A stretch of 18,404 bases of DNA from a virus. Location of the stretch: UHGV virus genome UHGV-0256895, one strand, 5' to 3'. The position numbers were made by a program, and so were the translations under genes. Of this stretch, positions 6,315 to 13,730 are shown piece after piece (position 1 is the stretch's first letter; the number at the start of each line of letters is the position of its first letter). Below the pieces are notes generated by a model that was given only the letters and a program-made list of their open reading frames with translations, had not been told where the DNA came from and searched no databases.

Positions 6315-6887
6315 TCAGGGGGATTCATTACTCTTATTTGCCGGAAATTTTCTATAAATTGTGGAAACACCCACATCAAAAATCAGTGCAATACGCTGTC
6401 TTGATTCTCCGGCCTCGAGTAAACGCCCAATCTGTGCCCACTGTTCGGTGGTCAACTTAGGACGGCGTCCACCTACTCTGCCTTTGGCACGAGCTGCAGC
6501 CAGCCCTGCCCTGGTACGTTCAACTATCAGTTCGCGTTCCATTTCAGCCAGGGCACCCATGACATGAAAAAAGAAACGGCCCATTGGGGTACTGGTATCA
6601 ATACTGTCAGTCAGGCTTCGGAAATTCACACCACGCTGGCGCAACTCCTCTATCAGCGTAACAAGATGCCGCATACTGCGCCCCAACCTGTCCAGCTTCC
6701 AGACAACCAGCGTGTCTCCTGCCGATAGTGTCCTGAGCAGCTTTTTCAGCCCCGGTCTGTCGGACTTAGTGCCACTGATTTTATCCTCAAAAATCCGCTC
6801 ACATCCCGCGCAGTTCAGTGCATTACGTTGCAAATCGGTGTTCTGGTCATTTGTTGACACGCGTACATAGCCAATAAGCATGATCAT
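6315..6887 (-). CDS. Serine DNA invertase of the Gin/Pin/Cin/Hin family
   Basis: 190 aa ORF starting M(IM)LIGYVRVSTNDQNTDLQRNAL..., the characteristic N-terminal catalytic motif of the invertase subfamily of serine recombinases, with a C-terminal HTH-like region; true start may be the third Met (6881). Located beside an invertible tail-fibre segment. Confidence 0.85.
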   Translation of the reverse strand: MIMLIGYVRVSTNDQNTDLQRNALNCAGCERIFEDKISGTKSDRPGLKKLLRTLSAGDTLVVWKLDRLGRSMRHLVTLIEELRQRGVNFRSLTDSIDTSTPMGRFFFHVMGALAEMERELIVERTRAGLAAARAKGRVGGRRPKLTTEQWAQIGRLLEAGESRQRIALIFDVGVSTIYRKFPANKSNESP

Positions 6888-6936
6888 CCCCCTGAATAAA
6901 AACCGGAGATGATGCCAGTTAGCCGTTATCTCTGCA

Positions 6937-6962
6937 TTTTCATAAACGTTGGTTTGGGAGAG
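6937..6962. other. Invertase crossover site 1 (gix/hix-like, 26 bp)
   Basis: TTTTCATAAACG TT GGTTTGGGAGAG: two AAAC/GGTTT half-sites around a central dinucleotide as in hixL/gix; sits between the invertase start and the silent tail-fibre segment; matches site 2 at 19 of 26 positions in inverted orientation. Confidence 0.6.
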
Positions 6963-7298
6963 GGAGCAAAATTAGGCGCAGCGGTGTGTGTGGCCGGCTC
7001 TACAGGCTATATGACTATCCCGGCAATGGTCGCCGGGAAAGAACGGGTGATCATATTGCAGTGGTTTGGTGCTGCTACAACTGATTATGTGACACCAGTA
7101 ACTGCGAATTTCCCTATTGCATTCCCAAATGAGTGCATGATTCCGTTATTTAGTGATGTATCAACTGGGGCAGTTGATTTGAGTTCTACAGCCGCATATA
7201 GCTTAGCGGTGGGCCGATCATACTATACGACGGTAACAAGAACTCAGATTACATGTGCTGGCTACGGTGGCTTTAGAGTTTTCGCGATTGGATGGTGA
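6951..7298 (+). CDS. Silent alternative tail-fibre C-terminal segment (Sv'), no start of its own; would fuse to the constant part of H after inversion
   Basis: Plus frame from the crossover core gives [69 protein letters not shown]...GFRVFAIGW, sharing ILQW, FPIAFP and GGF..FA.G motifs with the expressed H C-terminus. The track ORF 6909..7298 covers it. Confidence 0.6.
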
Positions 7299-7303
7299 TT
7301 AAT

Positions 7304-7723
7304 ATGTTTTATTCTGCAAAAGAAAATGCGTTCTACGCTGATGAGCTAAAAAGTATTTATGAAAATGCAGGTAGCTGGCCTGACGATGCCGTTGAAGTAG
7401 ACTATTCCGTATTCGTTGAGTTTGCCGGAGAATCACCTAACGGAAAATTACGCGCTCCTAATTCTGATGGTTTACCTGAATGGATAGATATTCCCGAACC
7501 AACTGAAGAGGAAATTATTGCGTTGGCAGAAGCCGAAAAATCGCGACTGCGTGCTTCAGCTGACTCTGAAATAGAATGGCGGCAGGACGCCGTTGATGCG
7601 GGGATCGCGACGGAAGAAGAAACTGTTTCATTAGCCGAATGGAAAAAATACCGGGTGCTGCTGATGCGAGTTGATACAGCAGACCCGGACTGGCCTACTC
7701 CTCCGGCGACTCAGGCCAGTTGA
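7304..7723 (+). CDS. Alternative tail fibre assembly protein (Tfa, U'-like), silent orientation
   Basis: [28 protein letters not shown]... parallels the N-terminus of the expressed Tfa ([30 protein letters not shown]...); lies directly after the silent fibre segment. Track ORF starts 4 codons earlier at 7292. Confidence 0.7.
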
Positions 7724-8126
7724 TATCTGGTGCGCTGGATATGTCCACAGATTCCAGCGCATCGAGATAATCCAGCCACTCGTTATACTGGGCCTTCTCG
7801 TCGTCTGTAAGTCGCCCCAGCGCAGCTTTACCCGGCCACTGCTTGCTGTTTATATACTCATTAGCCTGATCGATACGATACTGTTTTTCAGCTTCAGCTG
7901 CTGCGATTTCCTCCTCATGGCTTAAAGGTGGAATGTCTACCCATGCCGGCATTCCATCCTCAGTAGCTCCACGAGTTTTACCCTCTGGTGGCATCCCCGA
8001 ATATTCAGTGAATGTCTCATCTGAGACGGCTATGAGATCGTCAGGCCAGTTTCTACTCGCTTCATAAACATCTCTGAGCTCATCAGGGTAGAAAGCGTTA
8101 TTTAATGCTGAATAAAAATAAGCCAT
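7695..8126 (-). CDS. G: Tail fibre assembly protein (Tfa, gpG / Mu U-like), expressed orientation
   Basis: 143 aa ORF immediately downstream of the tail fibre gene; Tfa-like N-terminus; converges on the alternative Tfa with a 29 bp 3' overlap. Confidence 0.75.
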
Positions 8127-8129
8127 TTA

Positions 8130-11048: not shown

Positions 11049-11394
11049 TCTCTGCTCCTGTTGATACGGAAAGGGAAACAGGCACACCGTTATTACGCCG
11101 CCCGGTCAGCTCCACCACCATTGAACCGTCAAAATTGCTGTTAATGGTGATGGAATCCAGCGTCAGCCGTGGCTCCCAGCGACTCAGCGCCACATACACT
11201 GCCGACATGACCTGCAGGCGTAATGCCGGATTTTGTGGCTGGTCTATCAGTGCCGACAGCAGGGAACCATATTCCCGACGGGCAATGCGGCTACCCTGCG
11301 GCGTCAGCAAAATGTCCCGCACCGACTGGCGCAGATGATCAATATCAGTAATGGCTTTACCGCTGGTATTGTTCATCCCGCTATAAAGCGTCAT
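11035..11394 (-). CDS. W: Baseplate wedge protein gpW (gp25-like)
   Basis: 119 aa ORF MTLYSGMNNTSGKAITDIDHLRQSVRDILLTPQGSRIARREYGSLLSALIDQP... with a W/gp25-like pattern; overlaps V stop and J start. Confidence 0.8.
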   Translation of the reverse strand: MTLYSGMNNTSGKAITDIDHLRQSVRDILLTPQGSRIARREYGSLLSALIDQPQNPALRLQVMSAVYVALSRWEPRLTLDSITINSNFDGSMVVELTGRRNNGVPVSLSVSTGAENGSD

Positions 11395-11969
11395 ACCGGG
11401 CCTCCGGTTGTGTCGCCGCCTTTCAGGACGTCAGTATGCTGATGCGCATCAACCACGATCCCGTTAGAACTCATCGCTCCGCCGCCCTGGGTAACGCCAC
11501 CATTGATCACCACTTCGCTGTTAATGCGCGTGCGGTCAGCCTCCAGTACAAACTCACTGGTTTTCATGGTGATGTTGTCAGCGGCCTCAATGACCATTGA
11601 TTTGATGCCCCTGACATACCAGCGCCCGGTAGTGGGTTCGTATTCAAACCAGCCGCCGTCAGGATGTTCTGTCACGCAGGCGTCTGCCGACGTCGACGGT
11701 GGTGCGAACTGATTCGAATAGACAGCGGGCAGCGCAAAGGCAGTTTCCAGATTGCCGCCCAGACTCAGCAGCACCACCTGCTCACCTTCCGATGGTCGCC
11801 ACCATGTGCGGGCATTCCCGGCACGCAGCGTCAGCCAGCTGATCCAGTTGGTTTCAAGCTCGCCCGTTTTCACCCGGCAAAGCCAGTTTTCCCGGTCCAC
11901 TTCGGTGACTACACCAGTGCGGATCAGGTTGGTGATAAGGCGCATGATTTCGGTTAGTTGTGCGTTCAT
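11391..11969 (-). CDS. V: Baseplate spike protein gpV
   Basis: Track ORF runs to 12077 with a TTG start, but similarity to P2 gpV begins at the internal ATG (11969): MNAQLTEIMRLITNLIRTGVVTEVDRENWLCRVKTGELETNWISWLT... Confidence 0.75.
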   Translation of the reverse strand: MNAQLTEIMRLITNLIRTGVVTEVDRENWLCRVKTGELETNWISWLTLRAGNARTWWRPSEGEQVVLLSLGGNLETAFALPAVYSNQFAPPSTSADACVTEHPDGGWFEYEPTTGRWYVRGIKSMVIEAADNITMKTSEFVLEADRTRINSEVVINGGVTQGGGAMSSNGIVVDAHQHTDVLKGGDTTGGPV

Positions 11970-12015
11970 AGGGTTAGGTTGCACGGACCTTGAATCTATG
12001 GCATCAATACGTCCT

Positions 12016-12033
12016 TGTGTGGTAAATGACACA
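12016..12033 (-). promoter_or_regulatory. Candidate late-promoter dyad (TGT-N12-ACA) upstream of V
   Basis: TGTGTGGTAAATGACACA, centred about 55 bp upstream of the V start codon, which leaves almost no leader if the P2 geometry holds; overlaps the putative promoter and 5' end of the opposite-strand cargo ORF. Motif alone is weak evidence. Confidence 0.3.
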
Positions 12034-12064
12034 AATACAATTCCAATCAAAGAAAGGTAAAAGA

Positions 12065-12595
12065 ATGAGCCATCCAATTGATTATTACGCTATAGAAGAA
12101 CACGCAAGAATAATTGAGCAATTATGCTGTTCATCTGAATTTTATTTACAGCGTATATATTCCACACAGAAAGTATATGATGGTTCTATAGTAACTGAAT
12201 TTGAAATGGAGGAGTTATCGTACAACGGATGGTTGGAATATACCATTAGCAACAATCTTATTAGCCTTTGTACAAAACTACGAATTCTCCAAGACACTAG
12301 TGAACATGAGTGGAACCCAGATTACTCACCTGAGAAAGAAGCATTTGAAGAACATGAAAATATACTTTTTGTTATAGATGGTCATGTTAAAGATTCTATA
12401 CGCGAATGCTGCAATAAAATTATTCACGCATTAAGTTTTGAGTTAACAAAAAAGACCGGCAAAAATGGAATAAAATATTGGGACGGTTCTATTATTGCTT
12501 CTGGGGTTCAAAACAAAAAAAACTGGAAAATTAAAATAGACCTTTTCCCTTTTTGCCAAAGCATAAAAAGTTATTTAAGTTTATTAAGAGCGTAA
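12065..12595 (+). CDS. Hypothetical protein, AT-rich cargo (moron) ORF in the S-V junction; function unknown
   Basis: Track ORF 12026..12595; the RBS-supported start is ATG 12065 (GAAAGG 7 nt upstream), giving a 176 aa soluble, acidic protein (MSHPIDYYAIEEHARIIEQLCCSSEFYLQRIYSTQKVYDG...). Strongly AT-rich and on the opposite strand to all flanking tail genes; no similarity I recognise. Confidence 0.6.
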   Translation: MSHPIDYYAIEEHARIIEQLCCSSEFYLQRIYSTQKVYDGSIVTEFEMEELSYNGWLEYTISNNLISLCTKLRILQDTSEHEWNPDYSPEKEAFEEHENILFVIDGHVKDSIRECCNKIIHALSFELTKKTGKNGIKYWDGSIIASGVQNKKNWKIKIDLFPFCQSIKSYLSLLRA

Positions 12596-12600
12596 ACATT

Positions 12601-13053
12601 CTAATTTTTCATCAATAAATACTTTAAAAGTAAATCTCTTACTTCATTTTCAGTATGTTCATTTAAACCCAGCAATTTTCGGGATGGATACTTAATGACT
12701 CCCCCCTTTGGACTGACGCGATCGCGCAGACCGTAGTGATGAACACGGGCAATACGCTGTACCTTACCTTCAAACTGTACGCTGGCAGAATCCGCGCTGG
12801 CGGCAGTTCTCAGGTATTTTGTGGTGCGCAGCTTTGCAAACATCTGACGTTTGATGCGCCCCTTCTTGCTGCGTGCTGTTACCCTGCGCGGCTCATAACT
12901 GCTGCCATCTGGATTGCGCTGCATCCTGATATTCTGCTGCTGTGTCCGGCGCAGTTCCTGCGCCAGCTGGCGCATCATTCGGCTTCTTGCGGCTGGTTCC
13001 AGATTCGCCAGCAAAGCACTCAGCCAGTCGTCCACCTTCTGCAGTTCAGCCAC
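12601..13053 (-). CDS. S: Tail completion protein gpS
   Basis: 150 aa ORF with ..LEPAARSRMMRQLAQELRRTQQQNI..NPDGSSYEPRRVTARSKKGRIKRQMFAKLRT..VQRIARVHHYGL.. resembling P2 gpS; the last ~20 codons lie in AT-rich DNA. Confidence 0.8.
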   Translation of the reverse strand: MAELQKVDDWLSALLANLEPAARSRMMRQLAQELRRTQQQNIRMQRNPDGSSYEPRRVTARSKKGRIKRQMFAKLRTTKYLRTAASADSASVQFEGKVQRIARVHHYGLRDRVSPKGGVIKYPSRKLLGLNEHTENEVRDLLLKYLLMKN

Positions 13054-13477
13054 GTTTCACCGTCCACATTTCTTCAGGTTCATCGGGTTCCGCTACTGCT
13101 TCAACGCTCGACACACTTCCGTCAGTGCTGACCAGCACACGTTCCGTCAGTTGCAGGTTGAGGCTGATATCACAGACATCGTTGCGCAGAATATCCACCT
13201 CAAAGGTGAATAACTTTTCCCGTAACGCCGGATTATTGATGGCATCGGGCTGGTTATCACGCAGCCACAGCAAAACCGGGGCCATCAGCAGATTCTGGTC
13301 GCCGCTGAAATCCTCAATCACCACGTTGAGGGTATAACGGTACTCCCATGACATGGAGCTGGCCCCCGTGGCAACCAGCGAACCGTTATCCACAAACAGA
13401 TGCAGCTTATCCGGGTTATTGCGGACATAAGGCACTGCTTTATTGAGGGCGTGGCGCAGGGATTGTGGTTTGTTCAC
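13046..13477 (-). CDS. R: Tail completion protein gpR
   Basis: Track ORF 13046..13498; likely start is GTG 13477 with AGGAG 7 nt upstream (..VNKPQSLRHALNKAVPYVRNNPDKLHLF..); gpR-like. Confidence 0.75.
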   Translation of the reverse strand: MNKPQSLRHALNKAVPYVRNNPDKLHLFVDNGSLVATGASSMSWEYRYTLNVVIEDFSGDQNLLMAPVLLWLRDNQPDAINNPALREKLFTFEVDILRNDVCDISLNLQLTERVLVSTDGSVSSVEAVAEPDEPEEMWTVKRG

Positions 13478-13730
13478 TGTTTCGCTCCTGACACGCAATA
13501 ATCATGTCCACTTTGTCTGCACAGACCGCCCAGGCGGCCTCCGTTTCATCCAGCAATGCGTTCAGATCACCGTTAGTGCGCGGCGCTGCCTGCTCCAGCC
13601 GACACGGCGTCACTCGCGGACAACCACTGACGGTAAGCTGCACCTCCGGTGAGTGCCGGACGTTCCCGCAGCCGGATAATGTCAGCAGGCAAAGGAGTAT
13701 CAGCCCAGCGGCGTAAATCCTCGTTCTCAC
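13440..13730 (-). CDS. lysC: Outer-membrane lipoprotein spanin (LysC/Rz1-like o-spanin)
   Basis: 96 aa ORF with signal peptide and lipobox (MRTRIYAAGLILLCLLTLSGC), Pro-rich mature part; starts inside lysB in another frame and runs past its stop, overlapping the R start. Confidence 0.65.
   Translation of the reverse strand: MRTRIYAAGLILLCLLTLSGCGNVRHSPEVQLTVSGCPRVTPCRLEQAAPRTNGDLNALLDETEAAWAVCADKVDMIIACQERNSEQTTIPAPRPQ

Follow-up and report, generated by a model that had tools for sequence, protein, structure and literature searches.

Tail gene S of the P2-like prophage Cartapus ends in a foreign AT-rich segment that was probably imported in one cassette with an accessory gene and the late promoter of gene V

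Our comparison of the S-V locus of Escherichia phage Cartapus with its relatives suggests with high probability that the last 36 codons of S, the neighboring accessory ('cargo') gene and the late promoter PV of gene V constitute one imported cassette, which took the place of about 157 bp, likely via recombination with a P2-like phage. The window, that is, the whole 18.4-kb stretch of DNA that was analysed, is 100% identical to Cartapus (NC_070909; Peduoviridae, Elveevirus), a P2-like prophage of E. coli LF82 with its late genes on the minus strand. The entire replacement cassette, comprising PV, the cargo gene and the S tail, extends from ~11975/11983 to 12710, measures ~0.73 kb, has a G+C content of ~0.33 (window 0.54) and stands where relatives devoid of the insert have ~157 bp. 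Among 5426 complete E. coli genomes, 22 contain it as a unit, as do 12 (L007-L018) of the 80 loci contributed by a scan of IMG/VR, with 400-plus further IMG/VR hits lying outside this set. The gap between S and V amounts to 631 bp in Cartapus and holds one ORF, a gene absent from close relatives, which makes this an accessory locus of the orf30 type.

We suggest that the right crossover took place where the last strongly conserved block of S (codons 101-114) ends and the left one at the start codon of V or slightly upstream of it, and that the sequence between these two anchors would travel together. Since the right crossover would lie within an essential gene, a viable cassette would have to bring a working gpS C-terminus; likewise, a leaderless V mRNA and a fixed activator distance would require the cassette to bring a correctly spaced PV. 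The Cartapus cassette has both.

The chimeric S gene

Gene S (12601-13053, minus strand) comprises 150 codons from a GTG start to a TAG stop at 12601-12603, and its product ends in ...NEHTENEVRDLLLKYLLMKN. The cargo gene converges on it with a TAA stop at 12593-12595, which leaves a spacer of exactly 5 nt (12596-12600) between the two stops, as had been stated in an earlier note made from the DNA sequence. The same note held that no terminator separates the two genes, and indeed a scan of both strands from 11900 to 12800 returned no terminator-like site, and folding of the S/cargo junction against shuffled sequence revealed no stable structure on either strand (z = +0.33 and +1.81). It had furthermore assigned the final ~20 codons of S to an AT-rich block: the end of S is certainly AT-rich (G+C 0.315 over the last 108 nt), but the foreign segment comprises 36 codons, not ~20. 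The 108-nt windows outside the island have a mean G+C content of 0.552 ± 0.053, and none of them is as low as the S tail. The composition check proposed in the note bears out the island as well, with GC3 values of 0.28 for the tail and 0.27 for the cargo gene as compared with 0.61 for the S core.

The boundary of the foreign segment is sharp. The maximum-likelihood breakpoint is located at S nt 343 (codon 115; 12711/12710 in the window) with a delta-logL of 81.8, and the DNA identity between Cartapus S and the closest insert-less S falls from 0.97 to 0.41 at this nucleotide, which upholds the proposal that acquisition of the island replaced the native 3' end of S. For the proteins, the core and tail of Cartapus S are, respectively, 98% and 38% identical to those of Escherichia phage 500465-1, while the corresponding values for two insert-less phages compared with each other are 94% and 79%. 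Cartapus S is identical or nearly so to insert-less S through residue 114. Its native core (codons 1-114; 12712-13053, minus strand), which would have served as the right recombination anchor, ends in the block IARVHHYGLRDRVS (codons 101-114), the last strongly conserved one in S and invariant in our alignment; there follows PKGGVIKYPSRKLLGLNEHTENEVRDLLLKYLLMKN, encoded by codons 115-150 and the stop (12601-12711, minus strand). Within the core, comparison with the insert-less relatives yields an identity of 0.83-0.97 for 12715-12894 versus 0.90-1.00 beyond. An imported tract reaching that much further into S was considered and rejected, as the cassette relatives gave no support for it.

A megablast search identified many phages that match both flanks yet are devoid of ~570 bp; in Klebsiella phage 4LV2017, Escherichia phage 500465-1 and Fels-2, S and V are only 68 bp apart. 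The same 68-bp gap is present in all 63 insert-less loci collected (42 distinct S sequences, including that of the more distant Fels-2, with an S core that is 93-94% identical). All 63 likewise encode a GC-rich tail of the type …VRYAERRLLGVN…WLAG, in the form …VRYAERRLLGVNDDVEAMTRDMILQWLAG or a close variant, with a G+C content of 0.56-0.59 (0.69 in Fels-2). The earlier note had reasoned that the same AT-rich codons in relatives without any insert would mean that they are ancestral; in the alignment of gpS C-termini, the AT-rich Cartapus-type tail is absent from 63 of 63 insert-less relatives.

An AT-rich tail that is original to the Cartapus lineage, with loss of the cargo gene and gain of a GC-rich tail in the insert-less relatives, is improbable. 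The joint arrangement of cargo gene and tail is old, reaching the 60% level of cargo divergence across three enterobacterial phage lineages, and to this extent it would fit such a scenario. However, (i) the GC-rich tail fits the rest of each phage and is common to the insert-less loci up to and including Fels-2, (ii) the G+C content of the Cartapus tail (0.31) lies below that of every other 108-nt window in 18 kb, and (iii) the flanks are 97-100% identical to those of insert-less phages right to the breakpoints, which is the signature of a recent import and not of an old loss.

Judged from its sequence, the new S tail is a full-length, homologous, diverged but genuine gpS C-terminus. The Pfam profile PF05069 (Phage_tail_S) matches chimeric S with E = 4e-42 over residues 3-146 (profile positions 2-147 of 148), and the spacing of conserved residues is retained in the new tail (KG..I.Y..R.LLG.N...L pattern). 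The chimeric ORF is intact in the 22 E. coli genomes and the 12 IMG/VR loci, with one amino-acid polymorphism in the tail, and chimeric S is probably functional. A sequence search for a solved structure of gpS returned none. Cartapus DNA has been recovered from DNase-protected particles; no Cartapus plaques or myovirus particles were seen, and there was no indicator host (PMC9928086).

The latter observation could be taken to mean that transposition or illegitimate recombination truncated S, and that an accidental fusion has left the prophage tail-defective. We regard this as quite improbable, since homology to gpS extends over the full length of the new end, S retains the length typical of the family (148-152 aa), the ORF has stayed intact, apart from that one tail polymorphism, wherever the cassette was found, and encapsidated Cartapus DNA was detected (PMC9928086). 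Moreover, neither target-site duplications nor terminal inverted repeats or direct repeats were found bounding 11983/12710, and the island consists of a single ORF and contains no transposase domain.

Similarly, it is very improbable that the tail turned AT-rich in place, be it by local mutation bias or by selection (as an antisense 3' UTR, or by spreading of H-NS-type silencing). Even in insert-less phages, no part of S evolves faster than the C-terminus (79% identity versus 94% for the core), and several cassette tails exhibit an intermediate G+C content (0.38-0.46). The intermediate values are explained, however, by shorter replaced tracts (14-33 codons) within a measuring window of 36 codons. 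Drift could not, moreover, produce a fall in identity from 97% to 41% over a few nucleotides in phages that elsewhere share 95-100% identity, and it is at odds with the all-or-none pattern of tails that is observed and with the presence in the tail of IKYPSRKLLG, which is typical of distant S lineages.

Where this motif is native is informative about the origin of the tail. A back-translated search with IKYPxR[KR]LLG located it in insert-less P2-like phages with a low G+C content throughout S (0.37-0.43) and in one with a high G+C content (0.70). These are the only insert-less phages with an IKYPSRKLLG-type tail, and their whole S is ~45% identical to Cartapus S. When the low-GC S protein is compared with 346 phage records, its best match is Cartapus S, which ranks above the sister phages of Cartapus; this lead is due to the tail, so that the tail evidently comes from another S lineage than the core. 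The low-GC tails resemble the Cartapus tail in the first ~14 residues only, and a donor with a closely matching tail was not found: BLASTN of the low-GC locus L097 against the phage collection gave no match, and a search with the 40-aa foreign tail in a set of 5.8 billion proteins was uninformative, its only hit being a 24-aa fragment of this very protein. The Cartapus tail is 49-50% identical to the tails of two cassettes with cargo homologues and 38-44% identical to native tails, which is a modest gap. The low-GC P2-like family itself (L097, L100, L102, L103 and others; IMG/VR) has a locus G+C content of ~0.37 and a 72-bp gap between S and V.

The mosaic structure, its boundaries and its recurrence with other cargo types can be read directly from the sequences. 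Taken together, the step-like identity, the composition shared by tail and cargo gene, the absence of transposition marks and the existence of low-GC phages with the same motif argue for import by recombination from a donor of the lower-GC type. The tail would then be AT-rich because it shares its compositional history with the cargo gene, probably in a lower-GC P2-like phage, and not because it drifted in place.

The late promoter and the cargo gene

At the other end of the cassette, gene V (11391-11969, minus strand), which by translation and annotation encodes the baseplate spike (192 aa), is native and would have served as the left recombination anchor. Up to its ATG at 11969, V is 93-100% identical to insert-less relatives, as are W and R, and no breakpoint was detected inside V (delta-logL 5.4). 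The identity ends between the V ATG and 11983: positions 11970-11982 are native-like, and from 11983 onward the sequence is cassette-specific. In our alignments, the core segment of PV, from the dyad to the V ATG, corresponds to 11970-12015 (minus strand).

The recognised form of the P2 late-activator (Ogr/Delta) site is TGT-N12-ACA, centred ~55 nt upstream of the transcription start. Cartapus contains such a predicted Ogr-type dyad, TGTGTGGTAAATGACACA (12016-12033), which ends 46 nt before the V ATG and has its centre 55.5 nt from it. In the GenBank record of P2, transcription from PV starts at the first base of the V coding sequence and the centre of the activator site is likewise located 55.5 nt upstream, so that the Cartapus dyad conforms to a P2-type late promoter in both form and position. 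The insert-less relatives exhibit a different dyad, TGTATCAGCACTGATACA, at the equal distance of 46 nt. The earlier note had regarded the Cartapus dyad as sequence of the native V promoter, a view that cannot be maintained: the dyad lies inside the island and hence was imported with it, at the spacing found in native loci.

Since the PV start given in the P2 record falls on the V ATG, the V mRNA would be leaderless, and V appears from the sequence to be translated from such a leaderless mRNA in Cartapus. There is no Shine-Dalgarno sequence before V, and the distance from dyad to ATG is 46-48 nt though the intervening sequence is unrelated between cassettes. The loci considered in this respect are 11969-12033 in the window, L002, L004, L006, L019, L031, L043, L049 and L087 (1740-1809). 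In insert-less relatives, the S stop lies 4 nt from the dyad and no terminator is present there either, which indicates that read-through from S to V is probably normal in the lineage.

The cargo gene (12065-12595, plus strand; convergent with S) encodes a protein of 176 aa. Its conserved start is the ATG at 12065, and the interval of 95 nt between this ATG and that of V agrees with the value of about 100 bp given in the note. A longer ORF of 189 aa starting from 12026 is unsupported, as all 15 homologues begin with MSHPI. The protein family is small (16 clusters), has distant members in Pseudoalteromonas, a Chloroflexia MAG and a Dokdonia MAG, and is characterized by an invariant SIRECCNKIIHA segment. 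The cargo protein has no match in Pfam, PADLOC returned no families at E <= 1, and the one PHROG to which it belongs (18838) is of unknown function; its AF2 model is confident (pLDDT 90), and the fold matches are weak and generic. The HEPN superfamily is defined by an R-x4-6-H catalytic motif on a four-helix bundle, and a relationship of the cargo protein to HEPN-domain toxins is only a lead. By analogy with the company that the gene keeps at this hotspot, its product may plausibly serve in defence or in a toxin-like capacity. A 40%-identical homologue is encoded outside any phage in Pseudoalteromonas aliena (L094, 3001-5510), where it is directly succeeded by genes for an AAA_23/SMC_N ATPase and an unknown protein and then by a fragment of an IS110 transposase. 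The setting may be a defence island.

The cargo gene is not LF82_789, a listed moron of Cartapus, but LF82_787 (CARTA_14), which lies below the LB cut-off of that listing and is expressed in DMEM and macrophage samples (PMC9928086). Its RNA-seq values in LF82, as log2(FPKM+5), are 3.5 and 2.7 in overnight LB cultures, 5.1-6.0 in DMEM (~28-58 FPKM in the lysogens) and 4.4-5.3 in macrophages, with S and V near the floor at 2.3-3.6 (4.3 in one V sample; PMC9928086 S1 Table). Since the cargo gene is expressed and S and V are not, its promoter must lie in the 95 nt between the two ATGs, which also contain the whole of PV. A strict scan for a consensus sigma-70 promoter of the cargo gene found none. 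With a relaxed scan, the sole good -10-like hexamer upstream of the gene is the candidate TACAAT (12036-12041, plus strand), located 3 nt from the dyad; the accompanying -35 is poor and would lie inside the dyad. Similar TACAAT/TACAAA elements overlap a dyad arm in the cassettes of L089 and L088. With the cargo promoter confined to 95 nt that hold all of PV, and with its candidate -35 in the dyad, an overlap of the two promoters is unavoidable.

In the lysogen, a weak promoter abutting or overlapping the dyad would then drive the cargo gene and, with no terminator in between, its transcription would continue antisense into S. During lytic growth, cargo expression would be counteracted by binding of the activator and by late-operon transcription reading through the cargo gene. 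The cargo gene and V may thus interfere with each other, as the note had suggested, and transcripts from either side may read antisense through the junction, which lacks a terminator. In the RNA-seq data, S (LF82_394) is slightly above its neighbor R in DMEM and macrophages (~3.1-3.6 versus 2.3-2.8 log2 units); the excess could represent antisense transcripts of the cargo gene if the counts are not strand-resolved.

Other cargo types at the same site

Eight further cargo types are present in the same S lineage, with S-V gaps of 748, 797, 848, 930, 1034, 1622, 1664 and 1894 bp and with genes that include those for AIPR, SIR2_2, FRG-domain, DUF6216 and PcfJ-like proteins. Each cargo type has a private S tail, and the breakpoints are located at codons 108, 110, 115, 117, 119, 125, 130 and 135 (delta-logL 19.8-115 across the nine types). 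Each of the nine types also has its own TGT-N12-ACA dyad, positioned 46-48 nt from the V ATG in otherwise unrelated sequence, and in none of them was a breakpoint found in the 5' part of V. In eight of nine types the cargo gene is antisense to S, its stop being offset from that of S by -4 to +55 nt. Between 14 and 42 codons are replaced, depending on the cassette, the tail of RE2010 being nearly native, and several cassette tails have the intermediate G+C content of 0.38-0.46 considered above. In these sequence comparisons, a junction of the Cartapus type inside the 3' third of S is the rule in the Fels-2/Elveevirus-like lineage.

Homologues of the Cartapus cargo protein with 74% (Salmonella) and 60% (Enterobacter cloacae) identity are encoded in the same slot and in the same orientation. 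Their cassettes keep the gap of 5 nt from stop to stop and the AT-rich tails of the IKYP type, with breakpoints at codon 112, and judging by these sequences the Cartapus cassette evolves and persists as a unit. In L105 (IMGVR_UViG_2703718834_000011), which has a SIR2_2-type cargo, S is 100% identical to that of the insert-less L036 for 323 nt and 40% identical thereafter; this looks like the freshest swap in the set.

A functional coupling of S tail and cargo, such as a defence factor directed against foreign gpS tails to which the linked tail is self-resistant, might be read into the private tail of every cargo type and the defence-type character of several cargos (AIPR, SIR2_2, FRG), but it is most improbable, since simple hitch-hiking explains the linkage, the replaced tract is not of constant length, and S is untouched by the orf30 island of P2 and nearly native at its end in RE2010.

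Relation to known systems and implications

According to passages of PMC3091744 and PMC13586616, the S-V (orf30) site is one of three classical horizontally acquired regions in P2-like phages, along with tin/old and Z/fun. The orf30 locus of P2 resembles the Cartapus locus in several respects: the cargo occupies the same slot between S and V, is AT-rich (0.32-0.37; ~0.34 for P2 orf30) and antisense to the late genes, its start adjoins the activator site of PV, and the V mRNA starts at the ATG. In P2, however, the island does not start until just past the S stop, and S and orf30 are separated by a hairpin terminator; P2 S and the S of the orf30-less phage L-413C share 98% identity right to the last codon. 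The Cartapus junction, in contrast, is located 36 codons inside S, without a terminator and with the stops 5 nt apart, and the Cartapus cargo protein shows no homology to P2 Orf30 (BLASTP E = 0.22). The P2 arrangement demonstrates that inclusion of an S tail is not obligatory at this site. In the Peduovirus phage R18C (L131, NC_049461; 416-1626), the S-V cargo has the same orientation as S, and S diverges from P2 S from about residue 27, with an identity of 56% overall, which places the crossover far deeper in S. From the different junctions of P2 and R18C it follows that crossovers can fall at different depths in S.

In lambdoid phages, the modules of mosaic genomes are exchanged via recombination at conserved flanking sequences. 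The Cartapus locus shares with these the sharp breakpoints at the edges of conserved blocks, the alternative cassettes for one slot and the lack of transposition signatures. It differs in that one junction lies inside an essential structural gene and in that the module contains, besides the accessory gene, a coding tail and a precisely spaced, activator-dependent promoter.

There is likewise a resemblance to the defence hotspots of P2-like phages as portrayed in passages of PMC9122126 and PMC13586616, namely in the rapid turnover, the AIPR- and SIR2-like genes and the wholly different content of close relatives; in those passages the focus is on the cos-proximal (old/tin) and Z/fun hotspots. 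PMC13586616 (NAR 2026), in the part considered here, also mentions hotspots within tail genes and describes the recombination processes as yet to be elucidated. A gene-internal junction combined with a foreign gpS C-terminus and an exactly spaced PV specific to each cargo was not found in the literature passages searched. The S-V hotspot and gene-internal mosaic joints are already known; as far as these passages go, the anatomy of the cassette is the new part. The Cartapus junction is a neat trace of recombination at an established phage hotspot rather than a new kind of system.

It is nearly as likely as not that accessory and defence genes at the S-V site move in general as self-contained swap modules, the ends of which are fixed by anchors in two essential genes. 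If so, no module could do without a compatible gpS C-terminus and a promoter for leaderless V at the right spacing, and the ends of an essential tail protein would diversify as passengers of defence genes. A testable mechanism would then be at hand for the very fast swapping of defence genes that surveys of thousands of P2-like phages report and, in the passages at hand (PMC13586616), leave unexplained. Owing to the breakpoints (S codons 108-135, with L105 being 100% identical to the joint), the question of swapping can be tested at this locus. The cassette affords a view, at the level of nucleotides, of how one accessory slot is refilled by DNA that carries along the essential parts it displaces. 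For practical purposes, pipelines for hotspot detection that treat whole flanking genes as fixed borders misplace the edge of this cassette, and gpS C-termini are unsuitable as vertical phylogenetic markers.

Two further observations concern other parts of the window. A gene for a Gin-like DNA invertase (6315-6887) is located beside two convergent sets of a tail-fibre C-terminal end and an assembly gene (6315-8127). This stretch has a G+C content of 0.42-0.45 and contains an inverted repeat (7307-7363 / 8061-8117) of 57 nt with 77% complementarity; by analogy with Mu and P1, 6315-8127 looks like an invertible host-range segment. Finally, the RefSeq record of LF82 includes an embedded Rz1-like gene, lysC, which overlaps lysB and R (~13370-13620 in the window; NC_011993 2750994-2751242) and is unannotated in the record of phage Cartapus.
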